Assembly (NCBI GenBank): GCA_038823825.1 | Contig: JAWBCC010000002.1 | Coordinates: 1-32,000 of the forward strand | DNA length: 32,000 bases | DNA from: Candidatus Hadarchaeales archaeon | Lineage (GTDB): Archaea; Hadarchaeota; Hadarchaeia; Hadarchaeales; Hadarchaeaceae | Direction: 5' to 3' | In this document: positions 5,525-29,839 of the stretch, piece by piece | Layout of the letters: every line of letters starts with the position of its first letter | How positions within the stretch are numbered: the stretch's first letter is position 1 | The notes under the pieces: model-generated | What the model was told of the DNA's origin: nothing | What the model saw: the letters and a program-made list of their open reading frames with translations, nothing else | Databases searched by the model: none | Made by a program: the position numbers and the translations under genes

Positions 5525-5615
5525 AAATCACTCCGAACAAAGAGAATGTTTTTATTCCTTAATAATTTTTTGGGAAAAATAAAGAAATCTGATGCCTCCA
5601 CGTCCTATTTCTGCG

Positions 5616-6845: not shown

Positions 6846-6855
6846 GCTAATCCCT

Positions 6856-7419
6856 TTATGGGCCTGGGGCCGTGTTCTCTACGGCTTTGACTGTCAACGT
6901 ACCGGTGTAAGTTCCTCCGAGCTGGTCGGGAGCTGTGCTGAGGGCTGGGAAGACGTTGTATTCGTCGTAGCCAACGCCAGACGGTGGCTTTCTTAGGCCG
7001 ACCAACCACGGAATGGTTTCAAGCTCGTGTCTCGCGACCAAGAAGTTTTCATTTCCCTCTTCTCCAATAGCCAACTTCCAGAACTGGATGTTCTCGATGT
7101 TGTTGTCTCCTCCGGACTTGGCTAGATACATTCCAGCATACACCGCATCATATTCGGCCTTTGCCTGCAGATCTGTCTTGACCGTCGTGGTGTCGAGAAT
7201 CCTGATCCAATACTCATCAACAGGAGCCGGCGGTGTGACATTATGCGCGTTGACGCTTACTGTTCCCCAGTCGATGTCTCCCTCGATCGTTATGTCGATG
7301 ACGACTCCGATAGTCGCGCTGAGCGTAGCAGTTTGAGTGTCAACAGGCATCACCGCAGGAATGCTCAGAAGTGTTCCAAGCACTGCGAAAGCTGTTGCGA
7401 AACCCAACAATCTCTTCAT
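6856..7419 (-). CDS. Small exported beta-rich protein, a possible fibre or fimbrin-like subunit (function unknown)
   Basis: 187 aa with an ATG preceded by GAGGG. The Sec-type signal is MKRLLGFATAFAVLGTLLSIPA. An alternating T/A strand (TQTATLSATIGVVIDITIEGDIDWGTV) and the C-terminal GGTYTGTLTVKAVE recall beta-sandwich pilin-like folds. There is no C-terminal anchor. Confidence 0.6.
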   Translation of the reverse strand: MKRLLGFATAFAVLGTLLSIPAVMPVDTQTATLSATIGVVIDITIEGDIDWGTVSVNAHNVTPPAPVDEYWIRILDTTTVKTDLQAKAEYDAVYAGMYLAKSGGDNNIENIQFWKLAIGEEGNENFLVARHELETIPWLVGLRKPPSGVGYDEYNVFPALSTAPDQLGGTYTGTLTVKAVENTAPGP

Positions 7420-10500: not shown

Positions 10501-13500
10501 TAAGCGGAAGAGCGGCGCTCTTCCCGGGCAACTTGCCGGTGGGCAATACTGTTTTCAGATATTCTGTCGGATGGAGACCGGGGTACAGCTACACACGAAC
10601 GGATGAAAACGGAAACTACACATTTGTTGAAACTGCCCCATCCGCAATCGGAAGATACACCATAAAAGTTGAAATCGCCCAGGGAGATTTCAGCGGGGAG
10701 AACGCCGATAACATCGAGACTAGGGACATGCTGATCTCCGTTTCATTGAGCAAAACAAAGGCTATCCCGGGCGAAAGGGTAAGAGTTAGCGGCTTGACAA
10801 CCGTGTTGCTTCCGGGCGGGGAAAATAGGCCTCCTCGCGGCGGAACAAGAGTAGATATATACATCGATGACGAATGGTGGGCATACACATACACCGATAC
10901 GAGTGGATATTACTGGAAAGACATAAACGCCCCTGACGTTGGACCACACGAGGTAAAGGTCGTTTGCGCAGATAACGAGAACATCATTGGAGAAAACGTC
11001 ACGTATCTCTACGTGGAACGCATTCTTATTTCCGTTAACGTTGACAGGGATCCTTCCAACCCAGGAGCTGCAAACAGAGTCTGGGGATATGCATGGTTCC
11101 AGTACAGCGGAGACCCTGTTGAGAACTATGTACAAATCCGTCTTAATGGTGTGCCGATCGCAACGGTTATGACAAACCGTTTCGGATACTACGAAAATAA
11201 CTTCACCTCACCAACCTCGCTTGGTGAGCACAGAATCGATGTCACAATGTTGCATGAAAACTTCAGGGGAGACAATACGCGGTGGTTCTGGGTAAGAACC
11301 CTGGACATTCCAGTGAATCTGAGCGATAAGATTGTGAGGAGCGGGCAGTACATAACGGTCAGCGGAAGAATAACCGTTCAACCTGGCGGATGGCCAGTTC
11401 CTCAGTATACAGTTGTGCGCATATATCCGAGCTGGACCTCTCCAATAATAACATCCACCGGCCCAGATGGTACTTACACGGCCGGTCTAAATGCCCCCGC
11501 AACTCTTGGGATCCACACGATAAGGGTTGAAGCGGAGGAGGGGGAGAACGGCATAATGGGAAGCAGGGAAAACACGATAGAGGTCCGAGAGCTCCGCTTC
11601 TCAGAGTTTAAACTTGTAGACAACCACGGGCAGGAGGACCGAATAATGAATCCGGGTGAATCCTACAGACTATTCATAAGAATTCAGGAATTCAATGGAG
11701 CCTCATATTTCGACGTTGAGGAAACTCATCCATCAAATCCGTTCAAGGTCACGATCGCGGGTCAAGACTACACCCTTGCATACACCGGAAGTTCTGGAAT
11801 ATGGAGAACTCCTTACCTCACAGCAGAGAGTTCGCTCGGGATGTATGTGGTCTCCGCATTCTTCTTCGGAAGTTCAGCTAACGATATCTATGGAAGCCAA
11901 TCAATCAACTATACATACGACGTGAAGACAATCTGGCTTTCGCTTGTCATAGATAATGTAGTCAATCCTATGGAAAACACAACAATTTCCGGCAGAGCTA
12001 TTCTATTGCCAGATGATGCCCCTGTCAAACGAGAAAACGTATTTATCTTCAAAGAAGACGAACTGCTTACAATCGTTCAGACCGACTGGGAAGGTTATTT
12101 CAGATATTCCTTCGTGGCTCCTGACCTGCTCGAAAATTACTTCCTGAAAGTTAGAATAACCGATGCCAACGGAATTGAGAGAGAAAACTCCAGAAGACAG
12201 TGGGTGAAAACAATTGAAATTTCCATATTCCTAGGCGAAGAGGTCGTCGGAATTTCTCCCACTGACAATGTGTATGGTTGGGTCATTCTACATCCAGACA
12301 ACATACCACAAAGCGGCTTGGCTGTGAGGATTTTCGGAACCGGTCTAGACAACGAACAAACTGTGTATACCAACGATGAAGGTTATTACTTCCTGCAGTT
12401 CAACGTTTCTGCATATGCTAGGAATTACGGATTTGGAGAGGTCAGAGTTCAAGTCAGGAATGCTGACAACATTTACAATGAAAACTCCGCGACCTACTAT
12501 GTCGGAACTCCGGTAAACGTGAGGGGATGGATGAAGAATGCTGAAGGAAAACCGCTTCCCGCAACTTTCGAGTTCACATCGATTTCGAAAGGTTATACCC
12601 TCAGAATTTCCGTAAAACCAGACGGAACATACAGTGGCGTAATAATAAAAGACGATTATCATATGACATTCAGACTCTTTGGGCATTCTATAACTTTCTA
12701 CTCCGTGAGGACTTTCTCAGAAGCCCAGCAATGGGAGAACTTTGATAATCTAATCCGAATAGACAATATACCGCGATCCGCAGCATACGTTTCAGACAAC
12801 GTGAACACGATATTCGCTATTGCTATAGAAATAGACAACAAGCTCGCGGACAATTTCCAGACTGCGACGATCGTTCTGGATTACACACCATGGCTCGGGA
12901 TGATAACAAACGAAAGCAACCTTGCCGTCTACAAGGCGAGCTGGGATATGGCGAGAAGAGAAAACACAAGTAAATGGACAAGGCTTGGAGGAACTATCAA
13001 CAAGATCGATCACACAATAACTCTCAGTGGAGTTACCAAATTCTCGGCATATGTGGTGGGCGAGAGTGTACCTTCCATGCAGGATGTCGTTGGACCGATC
13101 GTTGGGCCTTTAGTGGGGCCGATCGTTGGACCACTTAGAGGACCGATACCAGATTACAGCGGGACTCTGAGGAAGATCATGGGGCTCATCGCAGATATTC
13201 AGACGACGGTGGAGAACCTGCCTACTCTTGAAAATCTCCCGCAAACTCCACCAGTGGAGGTTACTCCGAGTCCTTCCGCCGGTGTGTCTCTCGATATGTA
13301 TCCTGGAGAAACGGCCAAAGTTCCACTTTCAATCAAGAACAACTCCAATGTTCCGATTATCGTCACCGCATCAAAAGTCGGTCAGACATCCGCCTTCATC
13401 TCCTTCGAAGAACCGTACATAACCGTTCAGCCAGGAGATGTAGGAAAAGTTATGCTTGTCGTTCATATACCTGAAAACACACCGAAGGGTCTTTACACAG

Positions 13501-15284
13501 GTTCTGTTTTCCTTTATCCTGGAGTCCTGCAGGCTCCGATTGAAATTCCTGTCAAGATTCGCGTTCTCTCTCCGGCCAGAAGTCTGCTTGATGTAAGAAT
13601 ATCTTCACTTCTCCCAAGCGTTAATCCTGGTAAACATCAGAAAGCCGAGGTTACACTCTACAACATGGGAGAAGAGAAGAGAGTCGATGCCGTGGTGAGA
13701 GTTCAACTCATTGATCCGGACACTTTAGCTGTTCTCAATGAGGTTGAGGAAACTATGGCGGTCGAGACTTCTTTGAGCAGAATCTTTAGCCTGAAGGTTC
13801 CTGAAAACGCAAAGGAAAAATATTACTACCTAAAAGCTTTGGCGACTTATCTGACAGGCGAAAACAGAGAGATGCAGGCAAGTGCTCTCGCCTCGATGTC
13901 TGTGATAATTCCATTCTGGGATAAAACAACCTGGGGGATTTCCAACAAGATATTCTACTCTGTGATAGCCGCTGCGATTGCCGCCGGAACGGCCGGTTAC
14001 CTGTACTACCGCAGGCTGAAGAAATTACGCGAAGCACAGAAGAGATATGAAAGGGTTCTATCCTTCACCGAACTTCCACAGCCTGGACCGAGAAGCGCCT
14101 TCATAGGAAAACTGGCTGAAACCCCGAGAAAGGCATATCTGTACCTAGATGACCTCAGAACTCACGCGATTGTTGCTGGAGCGACCGGAGCAGGCAAAAC
14201 CATAATGACGCAGGATCTTGCCGAAGAGGCACTCATGCACGGAATCGATGTCTTCGTTTTCGACCCGACAGCACAGTGGACTGGAATGCTCCAAAAGTGT
14301 ACCGAGCACGAGATGCTTAGACACTATGACAAGTTTGGAATGAAGGAGAGAGATGCAGCGGGATTCCCAGGATATATAAAGAGAATCAAGGATCCAACTG
14401 AGTATCTCAACCTAGGCAAACTGCTCAAGAGACCGAAGAAAGAAGGAGAGATGGGCAGGATATGGGTTTTCCTGATCGACCAGCTTGACAGCAGAGATCT
14501 TGACGTTTTCATCGCAAACACCATAAACGACATCTTCAAGAGCAATCCCGAGGAGAGCCAGAAGCTTAGGGCGCTCATAATCTTTGACGAGGTCCACAGA
14601 CTCCTACCCAGATTCGGAGGAAAAGGTCTGGGAATAACGATGCTCGAGCGCGCCGTAAGAGAATTCAGAAAATGGGGAATTGGTCTCGTGCTCGCTTCGC
14701 AAGTCATTGCTGACTTTGAAAAGGAAATAAGAGCAAACATAAGAACACAGATCCAGCTCTGGACGAGAGATGAGGAGGAACTCGAGAGGATAAAGGAGAA
14801 GTTCGGACTCGGCTACATGCAGTCGGTCGCCAAAGCGGCCGTTGGGACCGGAATGGTATTCAACTCCGACTACAACAAGGGTAGACCTTACTTCATCCAC
14901 TTCAGGCCCATTCTCCACAGATTGACCAGACTAGAAGAAGATGTGATAATAAAGTGGGACAAATACACCAGGAGACTTGAGGAGCTCCAGGAGAAACTCG
15001 ATAAGCTGAGAGAGGCTGGAGCTGACATTTTCGACCTTGAGATCGAACTCGGGCTAGCGAGAAAGAAACTAGAAGAGGGTGCGTTCGACGTCGTCGATCT
15101 CTACTTGGAATCTGTTGAACCTAGAATTGATAAAGAGTGTAAGGCGAGAAAAATAGAAATCAAAAAAGTCAGGGTTACTGAGGAAGAGCTGAAGAAGGCC
15201 GAGATGGAGGCTAAGAAAGAAAGAGTAAAAGCGGAGAAGGCGGAGGACGAGAAGGAATCCAGAAAGCCCGAAAAGAAAACATGA
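7521..15284 (+). CDS. Giant (2,587-codon) surface protein: signal/anchor, FG-GAP/VCBS propeller, Ig-like repeat stalk, CARDB/NEW3-like domains, one TM helix, cytoplasmic HerA/FtsK-superfamily ATPase, coiled-coil tail
   Basis: The ORF is uninterrupted. The start is either TTG 7521 (SD-like GGGGTGG upstream) or ATG 7578 (MFTSYNRKEFTLLLLGLVISGLFAILWTGLASA). Domain evidence is given in the sub-features below. Confidence 0.9.
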   Translation: MSKRINRSHDKRFLVKKLNMFTSYNRKEFTLLLLGLVISGLFAILWTGLASATPDITISVFLNDEIVNPEQTIVAWGIAEEDGAPLDNRIVRFFLDGAFQTLSWGMPSSAPWEAGIRENTIIEANRIKLQYKPDMDIVFINENGYISWIDPYREVKTLGVYADKLGGAGDIDGDGKIDVVFTDGPQGALKYVDVDNNIRTLVASGVVNVAKGLADFDGDGKLDVPYVTTAYDYKIYFVDYEGRIRSVGPLPIHPLLLGGVGDFDNDGKPEVSFGYMSDIRHVDIDGQVISMGGSVQFHQTDRRSDISQAADFNGDGRLDVAYNPPSAYSDLWITDNRGNVRRVLPTGNVFGGLGTVGGMGDFYGDGRIVIAYKAFFTSTGNRYTPSHIMVVDNTGRIDNLGVLARYIGPIVDFDMDTGYVPSGSYRTPVIDWRSPTIRIENITLTVAIPVDTRLWVNVQVSDDNFSTIKDSNLLVLTPGMGGIDRTFPLSLKPARYARVIFSFFTDDLSRTAVLTSFTLNTNIVTLENGWYMRTFEAPSTLGTHQIKFTVERYPYLGENTKTFDVRRLVFEPAGLLDEHGQIDNILNPGERYYVLVKIQEENGTHRYDVTSGSFTENIGGTLHSLIYLENSIWRTSLQLTAPTTIGTYSFGSTVSGYSAENIIGSGNVTHTYYVKTLEIQLFFERSWVNPGDNVTIYGRVKKWPDNVWVEDADVDVYVAGNYVATVRTQSGENAGRYKYTFQAPRTLGGYPVRVWISHQGLDRENTSTFYVKTLTITVNMDPASHQVRPGVKVRIYGVVRRWPEGTPASYATVKLRMGPLDNYENINWPVADNIARADGSYDIYFTVRDEWVGEFKLVVIATDNYLLENENSTWMLSETIKISVYFSRSNVPPGTLIYVWGWAIFQPSGVPVSNNPVSIWKWEGADEDATFTDENGRYEYYFYAPQNWGNYNFRVRTSKAGLTGENVYPYKVSTILISLNIDDKIVNKGQEINISGRAALFPGNLPVGNTVFRYSVGWRPGYSYTRTDENGNYTFVETAPSAIGRYTIKVEIAQGDFSGENADNIETRDMLISVSLSKTKAIPGERVRVSGLTTVLLPGGENRPPRGGTRVDIYIDDEWWAYTYTDTSGYYWKDINAPDVGPHEVKVVCADNENIIGENVTYLYVERILISVNVDRDPSNPGAANRVWGYAWFQYSGDPVENYVQIRLNGVPIATVMTNRFGYYENNFTSPTSLGEHRIDVTMLHENFRGDNTRWFWVRTLDIPVNLSDKIVRSGQYITVSGRITVQPGGWPVPQYTVVRIYPSWTSPIITSTGPDGTYTAGLNAPATLGIHTIRVEAEEGENGIMGSRENTIEVRELRFSEFKLVDNHGQEDRIMNPGESYRLFIRIQEFNGASYFDVEETHPSNPFKVTIAGQDYTLAYTGSSGIWRTPYLTAESSLGMYVVSAFFFGSSANDIYGSQSINYTYDVKTIWLSLVIDNVVNPMENTTISGRAILLPDDAPVKRENVFIFKEDELLTIVQTDWEGYFRYSFVAPDLLENYFLKVRITDANGIERENSRRQWVKTIEISIFLGEEVVGISPTDNVYGWVILHPDNIPQSGLAVRIFGTGLDNEQTVYTNDEGYYFLQFNVSAYARNYGFGEVRVQVRNADNIYNENSATYYVGTPVNVRGWMKNAEGKPLPATFEFTSISKGYTLRISVKPDGTYSGVIIKDDYHMTFRLFGHSITFYSVRTFSEAQQWENFDNLIRIDNIPRSAAYVSDNVNTIFAIAIEIDNKLADNFQTATIVLDYTPWLGMITNESNLAVYKASWDMARRENTSKWTRLGGTINKIDHTITLSGVTKFSAYVVGESVPSMQDVVGPIVGPLVGPIVGPLRGPIPDYSGTLRKIMGLIADIQTTVENLPTLENLPQTPPVEVTPSPSAGVSLDMYPGETAKVPLSIKNNSNVPIIVTASKVGQTSAFISFEEPYITVQPGDVGKVMLVVHIPENTPKGLYTGSVFLYPGVLQAPIEIPVKIRVLSPARSLLDVRISSLLPSVNPGKHQKAEVTLYNMGEEKRVDAVVRVQLIDPDTLAVLNEVEETMAVETSLSRIFSLKVPENAKEKYYYLKALATYLTGENREMQASALASMSVIIPFWDKTTWGISNKIFYSVIAAAIAAGTAGYLYYRRLKKLREAQKRYERVLSFTELPQPGPRSAFIGKLAETPRKAYLYLDDLRTHAIVAGATGAGKTIMTQDLAEEALMHGIDVFVFDPTAQWTGMLQKCTEHEMLRHYDKFGMKERDAAGFPGYIKRIKDPTEYLNLGKLLKRPKKEGEMGRIWVFLIDQLDSRDLDVFIANTINDIFKSNPEESQKLRALIIFDEVHRLLPRFGGKGLGITMLERAVREFRKWGIGLVLASQVIADFEKEIRANIRTQIQLWTRDEEELERIKEKFGLGYMQSVAKAAVGTGMVFNSDYNKGRPYFIHFRPILHRLTRLEEDVIIKWDKYTRRLEELQEKLDKLREAGADIFDLEIELGLARKKLEEGAFDVVDLYLESVEPRIDKECKARKIEIKKVRVTEEELKKAEMEAKKERVKAEKAEDEKESRKPEKKT
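7960..8790 (+). repeat. FG-GAP/VCBS-type repeats (integrin-like beta-propeller) within the giant protein
   Basis: At least six spaced Ca-binding-type motifs are present: GDIDGDGKIDVVF, ADFDGDGKLDVPY, GDFDNDGKPEVSF, ADFNGDGRLDVAY, GDFYGDGRIVIAY and VDFDMDTGY. Confidence 0.75.
9538..12505 (+). repeat. About nine to ten diverged ~95-100-aa Ig-like (carboxypeptidase-regulatory-like) repeats, interrupted by a second copy of a distinct ~110-aa module
   Basis: Each unit starts V(K/R)T(L/I)xIx(V/L) and carries ...PG..v.i.G......P.g.pv....V......TDenG.Y...f.aP...G.y...v......GEN. Examples are YVKTLEIQLFF..., YVKTLTITVNM..., KVSTILISLNI..., YVERILISVNV..., WVRTLDIPVNL..., DVKTIWLSLVI... and WVKTIEISIFL.... 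Confidence 0.75.
13089..13148 (+). repeat. Five tandem 12-nt units encoding (VGPx)5: VGPI VGPL VGPI VGPL RGPI
   Basis: The units are gttggaccgatc / gttgggccttta / gtggggccgatc / gttggaccactt / agaggaccgata, read directly from the sequence. Confidence 0.9.
13950..14009 (+). other. Single predicted transmembrane helix of the giant protein
   Basis: IFYSVIAAAIAAGTAGYLYY is followed by RRLKKLREAQKR. By the positive-inside rule the downstream ATPase lies in the cytoplasm. Confidence 0.7.
14100..14920 (+). other. HerA/FtsK-superfamily (DUF87-like) P-loop ATPase domain of the giant protein
   Basis: Walker A is HAIVAGATGAGKT (GATGAGKT at 14178-14201). Walker B is LRALIIFDEVHRLLP (about 14573-14596). 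REFRKWGIGLVLASQVIADF...IRTQIQLWTRDEEE resembles the HerA eGRKfGvgl.l.sQrP...l.lrl pattern. Confidence 0.7.
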
Positions 15285-15324
15285 TAAGGGTTTTTGAATA
15301 TAATAACGATATTTTTGATGGTTG

Positions 15325-16017
15325 GTGAATTTGCCCGAAAAAAAGAAGAAAGAAACTCTTGCAGATAGGGTCGAAAAGCTGAGCGCACAAATGGAAGCTT
15401 TCGGAAAACTCAGGGAGAGCTTAGATATGAGGATCTCCATGCTGAACGAAAGAATCGGAGAGCTCAGAGCGATGGTTCTGAGAACCGAAAAAGATATGAT
15501 GGAGATCCGTGCGAAAACCGAAAGGACTACCGGGATAATCGAAGAGCTCGACCCAAGCAAAATAATGGGAGAGATCAGGAGGATGCAGGCGCGGGTCGAG
15601 ACGCTGGCGGCGAGGATAGATGCAACCGATGCTAAGCTTGACGCAATTAGTTCTGAACTTAGAGAAGTTAGGAGAGAGATTGGAAAGTTCCGTGGGGTTG
15701 AAAGCGTACTTTCCCTCTCCGAGGAGGTCAGGGCTGACTTGACGGAGATGGAAAAGATTGCGGCAGATGTCAGGAGGCAGGCGGACAGGGTGATGGCCAT
15801 CTTCGCGGAGCTGAGGGATAGGATGGGAAAAACCGAAAGGTTTGTAGCTAGGCTCGAGGCGCTCGAGGATTCGACAAAATCACTAAATAAGGGACTGAGC
15901 GAGCTTGCACCGAAGGTCGAAGAAGCTCTTGCTAGAATAGAAGAGCTGAGGGCGACGGCAAAAGCGACAAATCCTGAAGCCAAGGAGGAAAAACCCAAAG
16001 AGGAGAAAAAGAAATAA
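15325..16017 (+). CDS. Charged coiled-coil protein, paralogue A (function unknown)
   Basis: About 230 aa with heptad-rich E/R/K/L composition. It is collinear without gaps with the 23876..24442 product (MEAFGKLRESLDMRISMLNERIGELRA vs METISRLRESYDTRLSTISESIGSLKA; FRGVESVLSLSEEVRADL vs FKGIEELLELAKEIREDI). I prefer the GTG at 15325 as the start by alignment with the paralogue's ATG; the track uses TTG 15322. Confidence 0.75.
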   Translation: MNLPEKKKKETLADRVEKLSAQMEAFGKLRESLDMRISMLNERIGELRAMVLRTEKDMMEIRAKTERTTGIIEELDPSKIMGEIRRMQARVETLAARIDATDAKLDAISSELREVRREIGKFRGVESVLSLSEEVRADLTEMEKIAADVRRQADRVMAIFAELRDRMGKTERFVARLEALEDSTKSLNKGLSELAPKVEEALARIEELRATAKATNPEAKEEKPKEEKKK

Positions 16018-16045
16018 CACGGGTTAGAGAAGGAATTTGAAATCT

Positions 16046-17224
16046 ATGAAGGTTGCGTGTGTCTTCGGGACGAGACCGGAGATAATCAAACTCTCGCCGG
16101 TGATTGAAGAGTGTGGAAAAACCGGGCTCGATGTGCTTCTTGTGCACACGGGACAACACTATGATTATGAGATGAGTGATATCTTTTTGCAAGAGTTGGG
16201 TGTTCCAAATCCGAATTACCATTTGGGAATCCGGACGGAAAATCCTTTGGAAAGATTTTCGGAGATAATCACAAGATTGGAAAGAGTTTTGAAAAAAGAA
16301 GAGCCAGATTTTATGCTCGCGCAGGGAGATACCGACACTGTTCCAGCCTCGCTGTTCGTCGCTAGGCGCTCCGGGATCCCTGGAGGGCACGTGGAGGCAG
16401 GGCTTAGATCGTTTAATCAAGCGAGCCCAGAGGAGCTCAACAGAAAGTTGGCCAGCCGGCTCGCCCTTTTGCATTTTGCACCGACCGAGCTTAACAGAGA
16501 ATTCCTTCTGTCTGAGGGAGTGGACCCGGCGAATATTTTCGTGACCGGAAATACCATCGTCGATGTTGTCGGAAAAGTCAGAAAAAGACTCAAATCTGAA
16601 ATCCTGAGCGAACTTGAAATTCGGGATGAGAAGCCGATTCTACTGGTTACGGTTCATAGACCAGGAAACGTTGACAACAAAAATAATCTTTCCGAGATCT
16701 TCGGTGCTCTCTGCGATCTCAAAGAATTCCAGATAGTATTTCCGATTCATCCGCGCACAGAAAAGAGAGCTGCCGAGTTCGGACTTTTGCAGAGCCTTCA
16801 GAGAGCCGAGCATGTAAAGGTTATAAAACCTCTTGGTTATCTAGATTTCCTTTCTCTTATGTCAAAGTGTGATCTCATTCTGACAGATTCTGGGGGACTA
16901 CAAGAAGAAGCTTGCGAATTCAAAAAGCCCGTCGTAGTGATGAGGGAAACCACGCCTCGGTGGGAATCTGTTCTAGCTGGTTTTGCATTTTTAGCCGGGA
17001 CAAAGAGAAGCAGGATAACTGCAACTGTTCAACGCATTGCAGCAGATGATGGTCTCAAAAAGAAATTGAGGAAAACAAAGAATCCCTTTGGAGATGGAAA
17101 GGCCTCAAAGAGAATCGCTCGGATTCTGCGCAGACTAGGGAATAAAATAGGATATCCCGAACCGGACGAAGCTATGGCTAATAGTATCTTGAGAAAAATA
17201 CGGAGGATGACGCGTGCCAGTTGA
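16046..17224 (+). CDS. wecB: UDP-N-acetylglucosamine 2-epimerase (non-hydrolysing type)
   Basis: MKVACVFGTRPEIIKLSPV...HTGQHYDYEMSDIFLQELGVP...DSGGLQEE are family hallmarks. I prefer the ATG at 16046 to the track's TTG at 16037. Confidence 0.9.
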   Translation: MKVACVFGTRPEIIKLSPVIEECGKTGLDVLLVHTGQHYDYEMSDIFLQELGVPNPNYHLGIRTENPLERFSEIITRLERVLKKEEPDFMLAQGDTDTVPASLFVARRSGIPGGHVEAGLRSFNQASPEELNRKLASRLALLHFAPTELNREFLLSEGVDPANIFVTGNTIVDVVGKVRKRLKSEILSELEIRDEKPILLVTVHRPGNVDNKNNLSEIFGALCDLKEFQIVFPIHPRTEKRAAEFGLLQSLQRAEHVKVIKPLGYLDFLSLMSKCDLILTDSGGLQEEACEFKKPVVVMRETTPRWESVLAGFAFLAGTKRSRITATVQRIAADDGLKKKLRKTKNPFGDGKASKRIARILRRLGNKIGYPEPDEAMANSILRKIRRMTRAS

Positions 17225-17906
17225 GGCGGTTCTATTCGACATAGATGATACCATTTACGACCATAAAGAATGGCTCGCTGGTGCTTTCCTCAAGGTCGGC
17301 GAACTCCTCGAATCTCTCTTCGGTCTAAATAGGAAGGAGGTTAGAGACATCCTGCTCCAGCTTACAGAAAAGTATACCTCGGCTGCCGGAAATCTTTTTA
17401 ACCTTCTTTTACGTCAGATCGGCCTGCCCGAAGAGGAAAAACTCATAAAAAGAATTATAGAATCTTTTTACTCCTACATGCCGGATAGACTCACTCCTTA
17501 TCCTGCAATGTATGAAGTTTTAAAAACTCTGAAACAAATGGGAAAAAAGCTTGGCATAGTTTCAGATGGAAGAAGAGATGTTCAACTCCAAAAATTGAAA
17601 GCTCTTGGGTTAGAGGGATTTTTCGATGTGGTTGTGATATCTGATGAATACGGAAGAGAAAAAAGAAAACCCAACACTTTTCCATACGAATTGGCTCTAA
17701 AGAAGCTTGGGGTAGAAGCTAAATGTGCGGTCTACGTTGGGGACAACCCAAACAAAGATTTCATCGGAGCTAAAAAACTGGGCATGAGAACCATCAGACT
17801 CCTGATGGGGGAGTACGCCAACGTTCGGACGAGTATCGAGCTGGAAGCCGATTTCTCGGTAAGAAATCCAATTGAGATACTTTCTGTGCTCGATAGAATA
17901 AAATAG
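17214..17906 (+). CDS. HAD-superfamily hydrolase/phosphatase
   Basis: Motif I is LFDIDDTIYD, motif II IVSDG, motif III KRKPN and motif IV YVGDNPNKDF. The GTG start has GGAGG 8 nt upstream and overlaps the wecB 3' end by 11 nt. Confidence 0.85.
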   Translation: MPVEAVLFDIDDTIYDHKEWLAGAFLKVGELLESLFGLNRKEVRDILLQLTEKYTSAAGNLFNLLLRQIGLPEEEKLIKRIIESFYSYMPDRLTPYPAMYEVLKTLKQMGKKLGIVSDGRRDVQLQKLKALGLEGFFDVVVISDEYGREKRKPNTFPYELALKKLGVEAKCAVYVGDNPNKDFIGAKKLGMRTIRLLMGEYANVRTSIELEADFSVRNPIEILSVLDRIK

Positions 17907-17929
17907 TTTTTCTTTCAAATATTTAAAAT

Positions 17930-18936
17930 GTGGAAGACAAAATCCTCATAACCGGAATTGGCGGTGCTGCTGGCATATCCGTTGCAAAGAGTCTAAACGA
18001 GTTTTATTTAGTGGGTGTAGACGCTAATCCAAATGCACCTGGAAAAGTGCTGGTGAATGAATTCTATCAGATACCCTATGCTCGTGAGGAAAACTTCGTC
18101 GAAGAGCTCGCGAAAATCGCGAAAGAATGTTACTGCATGTTTTGCACGGTCGATGAGGAACTTCCAATCGTTGCAAAAAACATGGATGTTTTCGGCTGTA
18201 AGGTGCTTGTTTCACCATTAGAAAGCATAGAAAGATGTCTTGACAAGTTTGCGCTCCATTCATACCTTCGTGATAGAGGACTACCGACTCCCAAGACAGT
18301 GTTGCTAGAAAACCAGAGTTTTGAAGAACTAATGACGGAGCTTGGACCTTTCATCGTGAAGCCTAGAAGAGGAAGAGGTAGTAGAGATTTTTTGAGGTCA
18401 AAAATGAAGATTACTTTAGGTTTATTTTGAGCGCAAAGAATTACTTAAAGAAAGAGTTCATCTGTCAGAAAGAATTGAAGGGCAAAGAATACTCGGTTGA
18501 CGTTCTGCTAGACGAAAATGGAAAATTTTTGATTGCTGTTCCACGCGAGAGAATCTTAACCGATAGCGGAATTTCGATTGTTGGGAAAACTGTCATAAAT
18601 CCAAAACTCCAGGAGATCGTGCCGAGGATTGTTGAAGCGCTGGGATTAAAATACATAGTAAATGTTCAACTTAAAGAGGACGAGAATGGTGAACCCTACG
18701 TAACGGAAGTTAACCCCCGACCCGCTGGAACACTTTATCTAACAACGCTGTCCGGAGTGAACATGCCAAGACTCCTAATTAAGCTACTCGCAAAGGAGAA
18801 AATTGAGCCGTGGGGGTTGAGATACGAGGAACTTATCATGTATAGACTTTTTGAAGAGAAGATTTACCGGAAAAAAGGAAGAGGAGGAAAACAGAAAAGC
18901 AAAATATACAGGCATGATGACGTCTATCTGAAATGA
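17930..18936 (+). pseudogene. ATP-grasp ligase (carbamoyl-phosphate-synthase-like ATP-grasp fold) split into two ORFs by a -1 frame change in a T6 run
   Basis: ORF1 (17930-18430) carries ILITGIGGAAG...DKFALHSYLRDRGLPTPKT...IVKPRRGRGSRDF. ORF2 (frame -1) continues upstream of its listed start as FFEVKNEDYFRFIL...EYSVDVL...VTEVNPRPAGT. The frames join at tttttt 18388-18393. The ORF2 stop overlaps the GT2 start (ATGA at 18933-18936). Confidence 0.75.
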
Positions 18937-20294
18937 ACAAAGATAAAAATCAACATTTTGAAATCCTCAAAAGAAGGTATAGGAAGAAAGAAGGCAGAAT
19001 ATTCGCGTTTTCTATCCTTATTCTCTTTCTGATATCCCTGCTTGGGTTTGCCAGATTTGACGGAAGAAATTTCGCGGCGTATCTTACAATTGCGATTCAA
19101 GCCGTCTTCATCGCTTATCTTCTCAGACATATGGCGTTTGCATATACAGGATTGCAGATGAAGTGGGATCGTGAAGAATTTTCCGATTACGAACCACCCA
19201 TAAGCATTCTGATTCCCGCAAGAAATGAGGAAAAAGTCATTCGAGGACTAATAGAAAGCCTCGCGGAGGTTGACTATCCTAGGGAAAAATTTCAGGTTAT
19301 CGCCGTCGATGATGCAAGCGATGACAAAACCGGAGAAATTTTGGATGAACTCGCCAGAAAATACGATTGGTTAATTGTCATCCACAGATCTAAAAAAGAC
19401 CATGATCTGGCTCCTGGTAAGAGCTCGGTTCTGAACGATGCTCTCAGATTTGCTAGTGGAGAAATAATCTTTGTCTACGATGCGGATCATCAGGTGAAGA
19501 AAGATACGATAAAGAAAATTGTTAGACATTTCAAGGATCCGAAGGTTGGAATGGCAATGGGCAGATGTGTTGTTAGAAATGCGGACAAAAACATTCTCAC
19601 CAAACTCATTTACATAGAATTCCTAAGCGGCTATAAGGTCAATCAGTATGGAAGAGAGCTTCTACATGGGCTCGCTGCTTATGGTGGAAGTAACTGTGCC
19701 ATAAGACGATCTCTTTTAGAAGAGCTTGGTGGTTTTAACATAAGCAGCGTGACGGAAGATACGGATTTAACAGTTCGCGGGGTTCTTGAAGGTTATCGAG
19801 TAGTTTACGATGACGACGCTGTTTCGACTGAATTAGCGGTCACAAATCTAACAAGATATTGGAAGCAGAGATATCGCTGGGCCTATGGCCATCAACATGT
19901 CTTCTACGACTATTGGCTTGATGTCGTAAGATGCAAGCATCTTGGAATTCTTGACAAAATCGAATTTTTGATGTTTCTTTTCATCTATCACATGCCGGTT
20001 GTCATGTTCCTTGGTCTTCTCTTAACTTTCATGTGGGCTTTCGGAATTTTCCTTCCTAGAGATCCGTTTATCGGGCTTACACTCTGGATAGTTTTGCTCC
20101 TCGGACCTCTTTTGGAACTCGCAGCCGGACTCGTGTTGGCTAGAGAAAAGGGAAAGATGGCATTCTATCTAATACTCTTCCTTCCGCTCTTTTTCCTATC
20201 AATTATGATATGTACAAAGGCTTTCCTAGACGGAATAATCCGGGGAATAACAAAAGAGAGATATGTGTGGGTAAAAACTGAGAGGGAGATTTGA
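18933..20294 (+). CDS. Membrane-embedded family-2 glycosyltransferase of the processive synthase type (PgaC/IcaA/NodC/cellulose- or chitin-synthase-like)
   Basis: The D,D,D,QxxRW signature is present: AVDDASDD, VYDADH, VTEDTDL and QRYRWAYG. There are N-terminal TM helices and several C-terminal ones. Confidence 0.85.
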   Translation: MNKDKNQHFEILKRRYRKKEGRIFAFSILILFLISLLGFARFDGRNFAAYLTIAIQAVFIAYLLRHMAFAYTGLQMKWDREEFSDYEPPISILIPARNEEKVIRGLIESLAEVDYPREKFQVIAVDDASDDKTGEILDELARKYDWLIVIHRSKKDHDLAPGKSSVLNDALRFASGEIIFVYDADHQVKKDTIKKIVRHFKDPKVGMAMGRCVVRNADKNILTKLIYIEFLSGYKVNQYGRELLHGLAAYGGSNCAIRRSLLEELGGFNISSVTEDTDLTVRGVLEGYRVVYDDDAVSTELAVTNLTRYWKQRYRWAYGHQHVFYDYWLDVVRCKHLGILDKIEFLMFLFIYHMPVVMFLGLLLTFMWAFGIFLPRDPFIGLTLWIVLLLGPLLELAAGLVLAREKGKMAFYLILFLPLFFLSIMICTKAFLDGIIRGITKERYVWVKTEREI

Positions 20295-20830
20295 TGAAGA
20301 GATATGTTAGAATTAAAGCGGTAAAATTCTTCGTAACATTCTTTCTGATTTTGTCCGTTGCTCTCGTCTTTGCATATCAGATAAATGATGAGTTTAGGGA
20401 AATTGAAACAAAATTCATCGTGAGACTTACTAGAGCTTTGGGTTTAGAGACAAGTAGAGCTCCTCCTCACAAAATTTTTGCATATTATCCAGAAGGAGCA
20501 TTCATTCTTGAAATGACATTGTCCTGCTCGGCTCTTTTCCCAATTGCCACTTTCTTGTTTTTGGTTCTCTTGACGCCGGGTATATCTTTGAGAATGAAGC
20601 TTCTAGCTGGAATATTAACATGTCCGATCCTTTATCTCTTGAACGCTCTCCGCGTAGTGCTAGTTTTTTACGCCGGAAAAGTTTTGGGTAAGGGAGCTAT
20701 TCTTCTATTTCACGATTGGATGGGCGGCGCGATAATGTTTTTTGCCGCTCTCACTTCTTATTCAGTATGGCTCTTTCTCGTTCTGACAAGGCCAAGTGAG
20801 ATAAAACCAAGAACTTTATATCCTGAGTAA
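20294..20830 (+). CDS. Minimal archaeosortase/exosortase-family protein (about 178 aa)
   Basis: The protein is polytopic. ALGLETSRAPPHKIFAYYPEGAFILEMTLSCSALF matches the exosortase pattern ...lG.......i....g..l.v...CSG. NALRVV and LFHDWMGG follow, giving Cys79/Arg121/His141 in track numbering. The Cys-to-Arg spacing of 42 compares with 41 in Haloferax ArtA as I recall it (C173/R214). The ATG at 20294 overlaps the GT2 stop (TGATG). Confidence 0.65.
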   Translation: MKRYVRIKAVKFFVTFFLILSVALVFAYQINDEFREIETKFIVRLTRALGLETSRAPPHKIFAYYPEGAFILEMTLSCSALFPIATFLFLVLLTPGISLRMKLLAGILTCPILYLLNALRVVLVFYAGKVLGKGAILLFHDWMGGAIMFFAALTSYSVWLFLVLTRPSEIKPRTLYPE

Positions 20831-21442
20831 GAATTTGCTGGCCCAGAATACCTCGGCATATTTTACCCCGACAGCTAGACCCCGATATGCGGCGGTCTTT
20901 TCAACGTAATCGCACAGGTTTGCCCTCGGACCGGAGAGCTGAGAGCGATGAATTTTCAGAGCACGAAGTTTGAGTCGGAGTTCCTGCGATATGTCCACAT
21001 AAATGCATCCGATGGAAGGTTTTATGATTGAGGAAGGGGTCTCGCCAAAGAGAATTCTGTTGTGTCTGCGAGCCGCAGATATTGTTGAGTGTCCGGTTGC
21101 TTTGTGATCCTGGTGACTGTCCCAAGGAAGATGGGTTACTACAATATCTGGTTCAACTTTCCTTAACCATTCTTCGATAAGGTGAACTGTATCGACGTCG
21201 TGCTGGATCTTGCCGTCAGGCAATCCTCCAAACAAAACTTTTCTGATTCCGAGAATCTTGGCAGCTCTTTCTACCTCTCTTCTCCTTTGACCCGGTCTTC
21301 CACCGAGCTCGCCGTTGGAGAGAATCCCTGTAGTAACCTCTGTCCCCAGCTTTGACAATTTTGCGATTGTTCCTCCAGCTATGAGCTCCGGATCATCTGG
21401 ATGTGCTCCAATGACTAACACCGATTCAGGTATGATTGGCAT
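20816..21442 (-). CDS. PIG-L/LmbE-family N-acetylglucosaminyl deacetylase
   Basis: VLVIGAHPDDPELIAGG, HLPWDSHQDH and the overall length fit the family. The gene converges on the archaeosortase-like gene with a 15-nt 3' overlap. Confidence 0.85.
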   Translation of the reverse strand: MPIIPESVLVIGAHPDDPELIAGGTIAKLSKLGTEVTTGILSNGELGGRPGQRRREVERAAKILGIRKVLFGGLPDGKIQHDVDTVHLIEEWLRKVEPDIVVTHLPWDSHQDHKATGHSTISAARRHNRILFGETPSSIIKPSIGCIYVDISQELRLKLRALKIHRSQLSGPRANLCDYVEKTAAYRGLAVGVKYAEVFWASKFLLRI

Positions 21443-21570: not shown

Positions 21571-21966
21571 TCATGGAAGCAGAGATTCTCTCGTCCAGCC
21601 AGACATCTTTTTCAGTTCCTCCCCACCCACGTACACGATGGCATCTACCTTTCTCCCATCCTCGAGCTCGACTTCCACGACCTTCTTTGTAAAAAGTCCA
21701 AAAGAAACTCCCTCTATCTCATCTAACTTCCTGATGATTTCATCCGGAACGCATTGATAGAGCTCGCCCTTAACGCTTCCTGATGGGTCCTCTTTGATGA
21801 ACGGAAAGTTTAGCTCAGAAGGCCAGACGAGTCTGAAACCCCGAATTCTACCTAAAACAGGCTGATAGCAGGCCAATACATTGGATCTAGGATGCGTGAT
21901 AACCTCCCCGCTCCTGGGGTCTCTGAATTTCCTCATCAAGGTCCCATAAACAAAAACGTTCGTCAT
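21571..21966 (-). CDS. GGACT/AIG2-like gamma-glutamyl(amine) cyclotransferase-fold protein
   Basis: VFVYGTLMRKF...VKGELYQC...LDEIEGV...DAIVYV matches the family pattern. Confidence 0.75.
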   Translation of the reverse strand: MTNVFVYGTLMRKFRDPRSGEVITHPRSNVLACYQPVLGRIRGFRLVWPSELNFPFIKEDPSGSVKGELYQCVPDEIIRKLDEIEGVSFGLFTKKVVEVELEDGRKVDAIVYVGGEELKKMSGWTRESLLP

Positions 21967-22481
21967 TTTGTCGGAATCGATTTCAGCTTCTGAATGTAGT
22001 CCTTTGGAAAGCCGTTCTTAACCGCGGAACGAATCAACAGATTTAAGTACTCTGGGGTCGGTGGTACGAACTGGGCTGCTGGCTGCTTTACAACAAATGT
22101 TATTGCCTCCTTCACCAAGCCATCACGCGTCATCACGCTCACCCGCTTTTCTTGGTAAACCTTTGGGGCTCCCTCCTTCTTCCTGAGTTTCTCAAAATCA
22201 TCCTTCGTGAGCTCCATCAAAAGCCCCCAGACTTCCTCTCCCTCACATCTTTGAATGTTGGCCACCCCTCCGCATCTGGTTGCGGAGTAATAGTTAAAAA
22301 CAAGCTTCCAACCTTTTAGCACTGCTACTTCTTTTACAAGTGGCTTGACGGGCTGATAGTTGTGCATTCGACACCAATTTTCCAGATCCTCCTCGTCCAT
22401 GTTGGATCCATAAGCAAAGTAAAGCACGCGATCTTCATTAGAGCAGATTTGAGCAAACAATCCTGACCTTACTGATAACAC
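21963..22481 (-). CDS. GGCT-like (gamma-glutamylcyclotransferase, AIG2_2-type) protein
   Basis: YFAYGSNMDEEDL...GWKLVFN...GGVANI...VWGLLMEL...KKEGAP..Y matches the family. The start is uncertain (GTG 22481 or an internal start). The stop overlaps the downstream gene's start (ATGA). Confidence 0.75.
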   Translation of the reverse strand: MLSVRSGLFAQICSNEDRVLYFAYGSNMDEEDLENWCRMHNYQPVKPLVKEVAVLKGWKLVFNYYSATRCGGVANIQRCEGEEVWGLLMELTKDDFEKLRKKEGAPKVYQEKRVSVMTRDGLVKEAITFVVKQPAAQFVPPTPEYLNLLIRSAVKNGFPKDYIQKLKSIPTK

Positions 22482-22570: not shown

Positions 22571-22648
22571 AGCACCGATTCGAGTATGACGGGCATCTTA
22601 TTATCTCAAAGTAGAAAGAAACAATATTTGCCGTTATTTTCTGGTTCT
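22571..22648. repeat. Direct repeat copy B: the 3' end of the 231-aa gene, a spacer, and a degenerate PIG-L-like start (MPVILESVLD-stop)
   Basis: agcaccgattcgagtatgacgggcatcttattatctcaaagtagaaagaaacaatatttgccgttattttctggttctt. The minus-strand ATG at 22596 opens a 10-codon remnant that matches MPIIPESVLV of the intact PIG-L gene. Confidence 0.8.
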
Positions 22649-23329
22649 TATGTAGAGACCCAGAAATGCAAACAAAAGCACAACAGAAAGCGTGAACAAG
22701 CCAGCCATGCTGATCGGGATAGCTGAAGATTCTATTTCATACATCTGAGTTGAGTCTTGGGGATTTGTGAAACTGGAAGTAGACCACTGGAAGTAAACGT
22801 TATCATATTGGATATCCATGTTTTCCACCCCTATCGAGAAAACTAGATAGTTGTCTCCTATTTCATAGTACGGTTGAGTTGTTGTTTTAATTAAGCTTCC
22901 ATCCTCGGAGAATTCAACGATTGACGGAATCAAGTACCATGGGGGAGCGTACGGCTCGATGGGTGGAGGTTTGGGAGGCGGAATAAATATCAAAAGAGTC
23001 CAAGTCAAAAGGTAATCGACCCCAGTTCCCGATTGTCCACCTGGCCTGCAATCAATGTTTATGTTGTAAGTATACCTCGATACTCCAAATAATATATCTC
23101 CGTCACCGCCCGATGGAAATGGTCCATGATACTCCGATCTGAATAACCACAGTCCGTTTTCCACTTTATATCCATGACCCCGTATGTCGAGCCACGCTGG
23201 AATTCCGGGGTCTTGTCCATCATCTCCTAGGTAAGTCCACCCTTCCCAGTTACCGAAGACTGGTGTAGTAAATAAGACTAATGCTAGCAGAGGCACCATC
23301 GCTGCCGCAACTTTTTTTGTCCTTTTCAT
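22634..23329 (-). CDS. Exported protein of unknown function with a C-terminal IPIS + TM + RTRK tail
   Basis: 231 aa with signal MKRTKKVAAAMVPLLALVLFTTPVFG and an internal PPPKPPPIEPYAPP linker. The C-terminus is SSAIPISMAGLFTLSVVLLFAFLGLYIRTRK. A TATA-like tttataaa lies about 25 nt upstream. Confidence 0.7.
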   Translation of the reverse strand: MKRTKKVAAAMVPLLALVLFTTPVFGNWEGWTYLGDDGQDPGIPAWLDIRGHGYKVENGLWLFRSEYHGPFPSGGDGDILFGVSRYTYNINIDCRPGGQSGTGVDYLLTWTLLIFIPPPKPPPIEPYAPPWYLIPSIVEFSEDGSLIKTTTQPYYEIGDNYLVFSIGVENMDIQYDNVYFQWSTSSFTNPQDSTQMYEIESSAIPISMAGLFTLSVVLLFAFLGLYIRTRK

Positions 23330-23875: not shown

Positions 23876-24442
23876 ATGCCCAAAAAGGAGCCCGTCTCGC
23901 CAATTATGGAAACTATTTCCAGATTAAGAGAAAGCTATGATACCCGCCTTTCGACAATTAGCGAAAGCATCGGAAGTCTGAAGGCAAGGCTCGATGAACT
24001 TGAGCAGATTTTTTCCGAGCTCAAGGGGGCGAGCAAAGAAGCTCTCGATTTCCTCAGAGAAACTAGGCCACAAATACTTCTCTCCAACATGAAAAAACTC
24101 GAAATAGAAATTGAGGAAATTAAAGGGAGGCTCAGAGTCAATGAGGAAACACTCACAGAGCTCGGAAGGGATCTCAGAGAGGTAAAGCAGATGGTAAGTG
24201 AATTTAAAGGAATAGAGGAGTTATTGGAACTCGCGAAAGAAATAAGGGAAGATATAAGAGAAGTTGAGGAACTAAGGAAGAAAACAGAGGCGCATGCGGA
24301 TAAAATAGAAGCCATTTTTGTTGACATACACCGGAAAACCCGTGAAATAAAGGAATTGACTGCCTATGTGGAGGGGTTGAGAGAACTTGTTAGGGATCTC
24401 GAGAAAAAAGTCACAAAGCTCGAAATTTCGAGGAAAAAGTAG
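23876..24442 (+). CDS. Charged coiled-coil protein, paralogue B (function unknown)
   Basis: 188 aa, collinear with the 15325..16017 product over about 170 aa. Both genes have ATGGTTGG immediately 5' of the start codon. Confidence 0.75.
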   Translation: MPKKEPVSPIMETISRLRESYDTRLSTISESIGSLKARLDELEQIFSELKGASKEALDFLRETRPQILLSNMKKLEIEIEEIKGRLRVNEETLTELGRDLREVKQMVSEFKGIEELLELAKEIREDIREVEELRKKTEAHADKIEAIFVDIHRKTREIKELTAYVEGLRELVRDLEKKVTKLEISRKK

Positions 24443-26870: not shown

Positions 26871-26929
26871 TGTCTCTGCCTCCCTTTTAAGTCTTGAACT
26901 AAAACTTCAGCTTTGAACGACTATAAAGG

Positions 26930-27002
26930 TGGGCCCGCTGGGATTCGAACCCAGGCTCTCCACCTCGTAAGGGTGGCGTCATGCCAACTAGACCACGGGC
27001 CC
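26930..27002 (-). tRNA. tRNA-Val (anticodon UAC)
   Basis: Hand-folded cloverleaf: acceptor GGGCCCG/CGGGCCC, anticodon arm CCACC-CUUACGA-GGUGG, T arm CUGGG-UUCGAAU-CCCAG, discriminator A. Two C residues follow (26928-26929), but there is no full CCA. Confidence 0.9.
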
Positions 27003-29390: not shown

Positions 29391-29479
29391 TGGCGCCGGG
29401 GGTGGGATTTGAACCCACGCAGCGCGTATGCGCTAACGGCTTAGCAAGCCGCCGCCGTACCTGGCTGGGCCACCCCGGC
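29391..29479 (-). tRNA. tRNA-Ser (anticodon GCU), class II with a long variable arm and genomically encoded CCA
   Basis: Hand-folded: acceptor GCCGGGG/CCCCGGC, anticodon arm GCGGC-UUGCUAA-GCCGU, variable arm AGCGC-AUAC-GCGCU, T arm GUGGG-UUCAAAU-CCCAC, discriminator G plus CCA. Confidence 0.9.
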
Positions 29480-29523: not shown

Positions 29524-29839
29524 GGCGGCGAGCGTGTCCGAAGTGGACGCCTTCCCCGACGCCGTTTGCCGTTCCCCCATCTCCACCCCGTTGATCGCCA
29601 GCGCCGGACGTCCTGCCTACCGCTGCTCCCTTCCGGGCCTAACGGGGTTCAGCAGGCAAAGGCGGTTAGCCAACGACCCTCCGGTCGCGACCCCGCCACC
29701 GCCGGCCCAGCGAGACGAGGCTTCAACGTGGAGGAACGGCGCGTACGTGCGGTTCCAGCGCCGCCTCCGGACTTTCGGCCCACCGTAAGCCCCGTTTGTG
29801 GCTACAGGGGAGGGGCAGCCCCCCGCCTAGCTCGCCGCC
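29524..29839 (-). ncRNA. Signal recognition particle RNA (archaeal 7S RNA, about 316 nt)
   Basis: The minus strand contains CCUGCUGAACCCCGUUAGGCCCGGAAGGGAGCAGCGGUAGGCAGGACGUC. This is nearly identical to the conserved helix-8/S-domain sequence I recall from Methanocaldococcus SRP RNA. The 5' GGCGGCGAGC pairs with the 3' GCUCGCCGCC. The segment is very GC-rich relative to its flanks. Confidence 0.85.

Follow-up and report, generated by a model that had tools for sequence, protein, structure and literature searches.

The 32,000-nucleotide stretch examined here (the window; contig JAWBCC010000002.1, positions 1 to 32,000, assembly GCA_038823825.1, from a Candidatus Hadarchaeales archaeon) contains a cassette of six genes, which encode a UDP-N-acetylglucosamine (UDP-GlcNAc) 2-epimerase (WecB), a HAD-family phosphatase, an ATP-grasp ligase, a membrane-embedded glycosyltransferase of family 2 (GT2), a protein of the exosortase/archaeosortase family (the sortase-like protein) and a PIG-L/LmbE-family de-N-acetylase. 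This cassette is a new cross-domain variant of the exosortase-type sorting systems, and there is good support for a functional coupling between its sortase gene and its glycan genes. The reading we prefer, held with somewhat less than even confidence, is that the locus is a self-contained exosortase/archaeosortase-type system for the sorting of surface proteins, in which the proteins would be joined to a glycoconjugate made by the cassette itself.

The wecB gene (16037-17224, plus strand) encodes an epimerase of the non-hydrolysing type, giving UDP-N-acetylmannosamine (UDP-ManNAc); it matched TIGR00236 with 385 bits (cutoff 210), and among the NCBIfam profiles the model of the hydrolysing enzyme NeuC remained under its cutoff. 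The next gene, overlapping wecB by 11 nt, is that of a HAD-IA phosphatase (17214-17906, plus strand; Pfam HAD_2, 1.2e-33), which scored 159.6 bits with TIGR02253, slightly below the cutoff. It is followed by the ATP-grasp ligase, composed of a PylC-like N domain and ATPgrasp_Ter (17930-18936, plus strand), by the GT2 synthase of cellulose-synthase-like fold (18933-20294, plus strand), which shares an ATGA overlap with the ligase gene and carries the D, D, D, QRYRW signature, and by the sortase-like protein, a putative Cys transpeptidase of 178 aa (20294-20830, plus strand), whose ATG at 20294 belongs to a TGATG overlap. The PIG-L gene (20816-21442, minus strand; PF02585 93.7 bits, cutoff 28.2) is convergent to the sortase-like gene and overlaps it by 15 nt. 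The gene set, positions and junction overlaps that had been claimed in an initial annotation of this DNA were all present as described. The ATP-grasp ligase, which that annotation had placed in the gene run, is indeed there, but not as one intact open reading frame (ORF), being split in the assembly into ORFs 17930-18430 and 18427-18936 by a -1 frameshift at the T run 18388-18393. This run consists of six T in the window versus seven in the near-identical archaeal contigs L001 and L002, in which the ligase is intact with 333 aa, and the one-base deletion is either an assembly error or a strain-level inactivation. Neither a signal peptide nor a transmembrane (TM) helix was predicted in PIG-L, WecB and HAD, nor was either seen on reading the sequences of the two ATP-grasp halves.

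In order to follow the cassette in other genomes, one genome per species was scanned with an alignment built from those relatives of the sortase-like protein that are actinobacterial. The scan gave 80 loci, whose six-frame ORFs were searched with the window proteins. The actinobacterial alignment was used because a broad alignment had no sufficiently conserved stretch, and the survey is biased to Actinomycetota and uninformative on other phyla. The loci belong to Catenulispora, Geodermatophilus, Modestobacter, Blastococcus, Pseudonocardia, Micromonospora, Pilimelia, Acidimicrobiales and Solirubrobacterales. The GT2 was found in 77/80 loci (E 1e-100 to 1e-119), the ATP-grasp ligase in 77/80, WecB in 75/80, HAD in 71/80 and PIG-L in 70/80. 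All six genes occurred together in 62/80 loci, within about 7 kb and with a median span of 5.5 kb; the incomplete loci were mostly cut by contig ends, a few of them being true variants without PIG-L or wecB/HAD nearby. The clustering of the six genes is far beyond chance. The order PIG-L, GT2, sortase-like, ATP-grasp, wecB, HAD was present in 31 loci, the order GT2, sortase-like, ATP-grasp, wecB, HAD, PIG-L in 27, and other orders in 4, giving at least four gene orders in the 62 complete loci. Therefore selection, rather than the recent common descent of one arrangement, holds these genes together.

The same cassette was present in contigs L001 and L002 and in a divergent Hadarchaeales-like contig (L089, 59% G+C), whose GT2 is 51% identical to that of the window and in which the ATP-grasp and PIG-L genes lie on the opposite strand. 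In the metagenome contexts examined, GT2 homologues (41-51% identity) were located directly upstream of the sortase-like gene in six cases out of six; the contigs of P0003, of about 1 kb, offered no informative neighbours. The coupling of the GT2, sortase-like and PIG-L genes that the initial annotation had proposed is thus supported, as they make up a conserved functional unit and are co-located in the archaeal contigs and in most of the 80 actinobacterial loci. The cassette is not specific to archaea, most of the members found being in Actinomycetota, and its sharing between Hadarchaeales and Actinomycetota presumably occurred by horizontal transfer. Moreover, a reduced variant was recognized in four loci, in which the genes of a substrate, GT2, PIG-L and the sortase-like protein follow one another in this order. 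An unknown protein is encoded there as well, whereas wecB and HAD are missing and the ATP-grasp ligase is represented by no more than a weak match downstream. In L023, the locus of this type that was looked at closely, these four genes are tightly packed, start and stop codons overlapping by 4 nt at three junctions. On account of this variant GT2, PIG-L and the sortase-like protein look like the core of the system.

The assignment of the sortase-like protein to the archaeosortase/exosortase family, made in the initial annotation, was borne out by the family signature hidden Markov model (HMM) TIGR04178, which was matched with 43.7 bits (cutoff 23), while Pfam PF09721 fell marginally short (24.2 against a threshold of 25.7). 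None of the named subfamilies ArtA-ArtF, XrtG, XrtR, XrtS and XrtX was reached, the scores lying below the cutoffs for ArtF (35.6 vs 150), XrtG (23.4 vs 102.75), XrtR (22.3 vs 150), ArtD (21.2 vs 125) and ArtA (19.7 vs 75); for the actinobacterial member from L015 the signature model was the sole match. An exhaustive HMMER search of 1.84 billion representatives gave 136 relatives with 22-35% identity, mostly 160-210 aa long; a word-indexed search returned 2 near-identical proteins only. In the alignment of 28 relatives, all of which match TIGR04178, residues C79, N118, R121 and H141 are invariant. Judged from these searches, the protein is rare and divergent. The AlphaFold2 model of the protein had a predicted local distance difference test score (pLDDT) of 93, and no solved structure resembling it was found by sequence profile or by fold. 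Hydropathy analysis predicted four TM helices. When the positive-inside rule is added, the C-terminus would lie in the cytoplasm, and the Cys, Arg and His would be found on the outer side of the membrane. Both the family membership and the catalytic residues speak for the preferred reading, and the protein is apparently active as a sortase-type enzyme.

Candidate substrates were sought within 10 kb on each side of the actinobacterial cassettes. Tail-bearing ORFs were collected by means of jackhmmer and an HMM, a strict regular expression having caught only 14 of them, and 77 such secreted ORFs were found in 59 of the 80 loci. Their tail has the consensus C..[LVM]-P-[AE]-[DE]-G-N-G-x-G (or xPVGxxG), followed by about 20 hydrophobic residues and RxRRxR. 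The gene ended at no more than 500 bp from the cassette in 65 of the 77 cases, and in none was it more than 3 kb off. The mature parts belong to several families, including NCBIfam choice-of-anchor P. Varied mature parts with a shared tail, encoded beside the cassette, are the pattern expected of a sorting signal, and none of the sorting-signal models catalogued in NCBIfam (June 2026 release) matches these tails.

The sortase-like protein might instead be an accessory of the synthase, which releases or transfers the glycan chain or its acyl or peptide decoration, the tail proteins being merely membrane-anchored or handled by other enzymes. It is true that the sortase-like gene is always coupled to GT2 and at times fused to the ATP-grasp ligase, that the remaining 21/80 loci show no tail protein, and that the actinobacterial LP[AE][DE]G is superficially like LPXTG. 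However, no variation is seen in the Cys, Arg and His of the protein-sorting family, and the clustering of tail proteins with unrelated mature parts so close to the cassette is the hallmark of a cognate signal. The motif is, moreover, without the Thr of LPXTG, and BLASTP-level clustering showed no further gene family, hence no sortase, in more than about 15/80 loci. This clustering, of the single-linkage type and applied to stop-to-stop ORFs, lumped the whole cassette together with its antisense shadows and is useful only for the ceiling that it sets on the recurrence of other families. An accessory role of this kind is thus considered quite improbable.

For the archaeal window the candidate substrate is a secreted protein of 231 aa (22634-23329, minus strand), with a signal peptide and a C-terminal TM helix, the tail reading …SSAIPISMAG, TM helix, RTRK. 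Its homologue in L089 (41% identity, E 5e-57) is encoded directly upstream of PIG-L and is operonic with it. A distant homologue, with 22% full-length identity (E 3e-5 in a single pairwise comparison), is encoded directly downstream of the sortase-like gene in L008, a contig unrelated to the others. The family therefore adjoins the cassette in three lineages (window, L089 and L008), and P205, G210 and T213 of the tail are invariant in a five-sequence alignment. The idea that C-terminally tagged proteins encoded nearby are the substrates, put forward in the initial annotation, is plausible in view of this conserved tail and of its neighbourhood in L089 and L008, and for the archaeal window itself the link to a cognate substrate is no more than suggestive. 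For the second protein that had been named, of 409 aa and with a CBM96/DNRLRE domain, nothing was found for or against a role as substrate.

A homologue of the 231-aa secreted protein with 82% identity also occurs in L092, a Hadarchaeales relative. At L092:10001-15633 it is followed, where the window has the cassette, by a largely helical protein of 1647 aa, which likewise ends in a TM helix and a basic tail.

Five TM helices are predicted in the GT2, whose motifs D127/D131, D183/D185, TED274-276 and QRYRW312-316 do not vary among 28 homologues. The top profile was that of PgaC/IcaA (TIGR03937), with 143.6 bits against a cutoff of 422.3, so that the equivalog level was not attained; CelA, the XrtG-associated glycosyltransferase (92.5 vs 363.95) and NodC (81.8 bits) also matched, and dolichol-phosphate-mannose synthase was a distant match at 34 bits. 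In the AlphaFold2 model (pLDDT 87.6) a GT-A domain is packed on a TM bundle, as in the cellulose-synthase-like fold, and the best Foldseek matches were PcManGT, BcsA and the hyaluronan synthases (HAS) of Chlorella virus and Xenopus (E 1e-15 to 1e-19, TM-score up to 0.68). The possibility, considered in the initial annotation, that the nearest relatives were non-processive dolichol-phosphate-sugar synthases can thus be set aside, the nearest profiles being PgaC/IcaA, CelA and NodC and the nearest folds PcManGT, BcsA and HAS.

The metal-binding motifs AHPDD and HxxH of PIG-L are intact (…VIGAHPDDPE… and …SHQDH…), and its closest solved relatives are annotated as archaeal diacetylchitobiose deacetylases, enzymes which act on the non-reducing end of chitobiose. 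The absence of a signal peptide and of a TM helix makes a cytoplasmic location probable, and the protein would probably act before export, as in the glycosylphosphatidylinositol (GPI) pathway or like NodB. An extracellular deacetylation of the PgaB type was rejected on the same ground. The analogy with a PgaC-type synthase and its partner deacetylase, drawn in the initial annotation, does not hold in this respect, since PgaB works on the exported polymer and PIG-L has no signal peptide.

Deacetylases of this family also suggest a quite different pathway, in which the soluble enzymes make a small soluble amino-sugar conjugate similar to mycothiol or bacillithiol and the membrane proteins are unrelated neighbours. 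The enzyme set, with its glycosyltransferase, phosphatase, PIG-L deacetylase and ligase, does parallel MshA, MshA2, MshB and MshC, and BshB1 was the best NCBIfam match of PIG-L; its score of 99.4 bits is however far under the cutoff of 182.5, as are those of BshB2 (65.5 vs 195) and MshB (21 vs 224). Furthermore, the glycosyltransferase is a five-helix channel-type GT2 and not a soluble GT4, and the membrane genes are conserved in the cassette as much as the soluble ones. Such a pathway is regarded as very improbable indeed.

Three predicted proteins (P0040, P0069 and P0083) combine the sortase-like domain with an ATP-grasp domain of the operon's type, and in seven genome loci the two lie in one stop-free ORF; stop-free stretches are frequent in high-G+C DNA, and these cases are hence called apparent fusions. 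Since the ATP-grasp ligase, WecB and HAD are as conserved as PIG-L, and the ligase is in some lineages apparently fused to the sortase-like protein, the exposed amine is more likely to be acylated than left free, and it is probably the ATP-grasp enzyme that acylates it. The conservation of WecB, along with HAD and ATP-grasp, at the level of PIG-L also indicates that the sugar is probably ManNAc-derived.

Actinomycetota have a seventh conserved element, a segment of about 110-180 residues that matches nothing in Pfam and lies between the sortase-like protein and the ATP-grasp ligase. It is encoded directly downstream of the sortase-like gene, at about nt 10500-11100 of most loci, and in essentially every actinobacterial locus (L009-L091) it is either a separate gene, as at L091:11877-12587 and L090:11804-12343, or joined to one of its two neighbours. 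In the two proteins used as queries the segment opens with a TM helix, after which comes an Arg-rich stretch. The element was not detected in the archaeal contigs.

In the mechanism that we propose, WecB would supply UDP-ManNAc, and the membrane GT2 would build an N-acetylhexosamine (HexNAc) oligomer, polymer or glycolipid at the inner membrane face and then export it. PIG-L, probably cytoplasmic, would strip an N-acetyl group before export, the ATP-grasp ligase would acylate the freed amine, probably with an amino acid, and the HAD phosphatase would take a phosphate off an intermediate. At the outer face the sortase-like enzyme would cut the tail signal from the substrate proteins by means of its Cys/Arg/His site and would hand their new C-terminus to an amine on the glycoconjugate. 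By analogy, the events would take the order of NodC, NodB and NodA, with a topology as in GPI synthesis, and would not follow PgaC/PgaB. The least certain step is the glycan as covalent acceptor. The bare glucosamine (GlcN) amine, which the initial annotation had suggested as nucleophile, is possible and would be less likely than an amino-acylated sugar, because the ATP-grasp ligase is so tightly tied to the sortase-like protein. Distinctly doubtful, to our mind, is the conjecture that the locus is a prokaryotic equivalent of GPI anchoring, assembled from parts unrelated to it, with the new C-terminus amide-linked to the de-N-acetylated sugar, or to the amino acid added to it by the ATP-grasp enzyme, on a glycan or glycolipid made by GT2 and exported.

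Several observations weigh against the joining of proteins to a cassette-made glycoconjugate. The HMM of the actinobacterial tails matched no ORF of the window; as it misses the archaeal proteins, no single cross-domain signal is claimed. In L092 the homologue of the 231-aa secreted protein keeps its tail with no cassette within 10 kb, and three Acidimicrobiaceae loci lack PIG-L within 10 kb. The window assembly has a frameshift in the ATP-grasp gene. Among solved structures, GT2 is best matched in sequence by PcManGT, whose deposited name is that of a mannosyltransferase; this enzyme works in N-glycan synthesis and is not known as a polymer synthase, so that the fold alone is no proof of processivity. 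In the GPI pathway, moreover, the amine used for attachment is that of ethanolamine phosphate and not that of GlcN.

In a second reading, glycan synthesis and protein sorting are co-regulated and chemically independent. The glycan made by GT2, WecB, PIG-L, ATP-grasp and HAD would then be a modified ManNAc/GlcNAc exopolysaccharide or envelope polymer. The tail proteins would be cleaved separately by the sortase-like enzyme and either attached to an ordinary membrane lipid, as has been proposed for ArtA, or released into the matrix. Exosortase genes are typically found in exopolysaccharide loci, and we know of no linkage between glycan and protein that has been demonstrated for an exosortase. 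The tail protein retained in L092 away from any nearby cassette speaks for independence as well. So do the ArtA substrates of Haloferax volcanii, which seem to be lipid-anchored by a route dependent on archaetidylethanolamine, an amine-bearing lipid (PMC7157517). On the other side, the linkage of the genes, including the apparent fusion of the sortase-like protein with a cytoplasmic ATP-grasp enzyme, is tighter than co-regulation usually gives, and the reduced four-gene operon described above, with its 4-nt overlaps in L023, is likewise against it. Chemical independence is in our opinion possible, though rather unlikely.

The literature search found no published description of the six-gene cassette, and NCBIfam (June 2026 release) holds no curated model for it. 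The closest known system is that of XrtG, which comprises XrtG, a GT2 and Firmicu-CTERM proteins and occurs in Firmicutes (PMC12854382). The XrtG system (TIGR03110, with the GT2 TIGR03111) resembles the cassette in its exosortase of about 180 aa, its multi-pass PgaC-like GT2, and its dedicated protein with a C-terminal signal, and it belongs to a single-membrane organism; the window GT2 and sortase-like protein match its models only below threshold. The cassette differs in the addition of PIG-L, ATP-grasp, WecB and HAD, in a different and uncatalogued tail motif, and in its occurrence in Actinomycetota and an archaeon. The descriptions of the ArtF and XrtG families used here follow the names of the models.

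With the ArtA/PGF-CTERM system the cassette has in common the superfamily, a C-terminal signal in three parts and the notion that the acceptor is a lipid with an amine (PMC7157517); ArtA, however, is larger and is partnered by the lipid enzymes PssA/PssD, and the window is without the PGF motif. The GPI pathway offers GlcNAc transfer, de-N-acetylation by PIG-L on the cytoplasmic side and a Cys enzyme that swaps a hydrophobic signal for the amine of a glycolipid. Nevertheless, the cassette uses a GT2 and not the GT4 PIG-A, its transpeptidase is unrelated to the C13 PIG-K, and PIG-L is the only component common to both; this is an analogy and not membership.

Similarly, Nod factor synthesis involves a HexNAc oligomer made by a membrane GT2 with QxxRW (NodC), a cytoplasmic deacetylase (NodB) and N-acylation (NodA), whereas the cassette has a PIG-L in place of a deacetylase of carbohydrate esterase family 4 (CE4) and an ATP-grasp ligase in place of an acyltransferase, and the Nod pathway has no sortase-like enzyme and no protein substrates. 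The poly-N-acetylglucosamine (PNAG) systems PgaABCD/IcaADBC share with the cassette the pairing of a synthase with a de-N-acetylase, PgaC/IcaA being also the top profile of GT2; their deacetylases are extracytoplasmic CE4 enzymes, in contrast to the unsecreted PIG-L, and WecB points to ManNAc. With regard to the sugar, the Pss poly-ManNAc system of Listeria is a nearer precedent than PNAG.

Between PIG-L and the gene of the 231-aa secreted protein lie two tandem GGACT/AIG2-like genes (21571-21966 and 21963-22481, both minus strand; Pfam GGACT and AIG2_2). They are absent from all 80 actinobacterial loci, from L089 and from every other cassette examined; the pair is lineage-specific, and its membership in the system is doubtful. 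Enzymes of the GGACT type split gamma-glutamyl-amine bonds, and the pair is a curious neighbour for an amide-forming ligase.

Upstream of the cassette a giant protein of 2587 aa (7521-15284, plus strand) bears FG-GAP and Ig-like repeats on its outer part, has a single TM helix and carries a HerA/FtsK-like ATPase domain at the C-terminus. Next to it, and directly upstream of wecB, a coiled-coil protein is encoded that is also of 231 aa (15322-16017, plus strand). Both occupy the same position in L001 and in the divergent L089, where the coiled-coil protein is 82% identical, versus only 51% for GT2. A paralogue of the coiled-coil protein is encoded at 23876-24442 (plus strand), so that the cassette is flanked by the two (about 25% identity, E 8e-23 via the L089 homologue). 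L092, without the cassette at this site, retains the syntenic gene on the right-hand side, and the cassette region may represent an insertion/deletion difference between strains.

Further upstream, a run of genes on the minus strand (3159-7419) encodes a MinD/ParA-like ATPase of 241 aa and three secreted proteins, namely one of 547 aa (CARDB/NPCBM_assoc), the above-mentioned CBM96/DNRLRE protein and one of 187 aa. Of these, the 547-aa and 409-aa proteins end in a TM helix with a basic tail. ParA/BcsQ-like ATPases adjoin the cassette in L007 and L089 too.

Contamination of this metagenome-assembled genome was ruled out as the source of the cassette. The contig is marked as archaeal by a signal recognition particle (SRP) RNA of archaeal type (29526-29837, minus strand) and by a TFE-like gene, the evidence for the latter being the TFIIE_alpha domain in genes of L089 and L092 that are syntenic with the window; the cassette is also carried by L001, L002 and L089. 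Two ordinary genes, tRNA-Val(TAC) (26928-27002, minus strand) and tRNA-Ser(GCT) (29391-29479, minus strand), likewise confirm the archaeal nature of the contig.

To our knowledge, the attachment target of the exosortases and the reason for the location of their genes in polysaccharide loci are long-standing questions. The cassette is compact, the archaeon having six genes and Actinomycetota seven conserved elements, and it is self-contained, with its own candidate substrates; the chemistry of a de-N-acetylase and an amide-forming ligase points directly to the making of an amine acceptor. As its carriers include the culturable Geodermatophilus, Modestobacter, Blastococcus, Catenulispora, Pseudonocardia and Micromonospora, the question becomes testable. 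The cassette is also a surface-biogenesis module common to Actinomycetota and an uncultured subsurface order of archaea. If the conjectured GPI-like attachment is correct, this would be the first dedicated acceptor identified for an enzyme of the exosortase family, in organisms which are culturable and genetically tractable.

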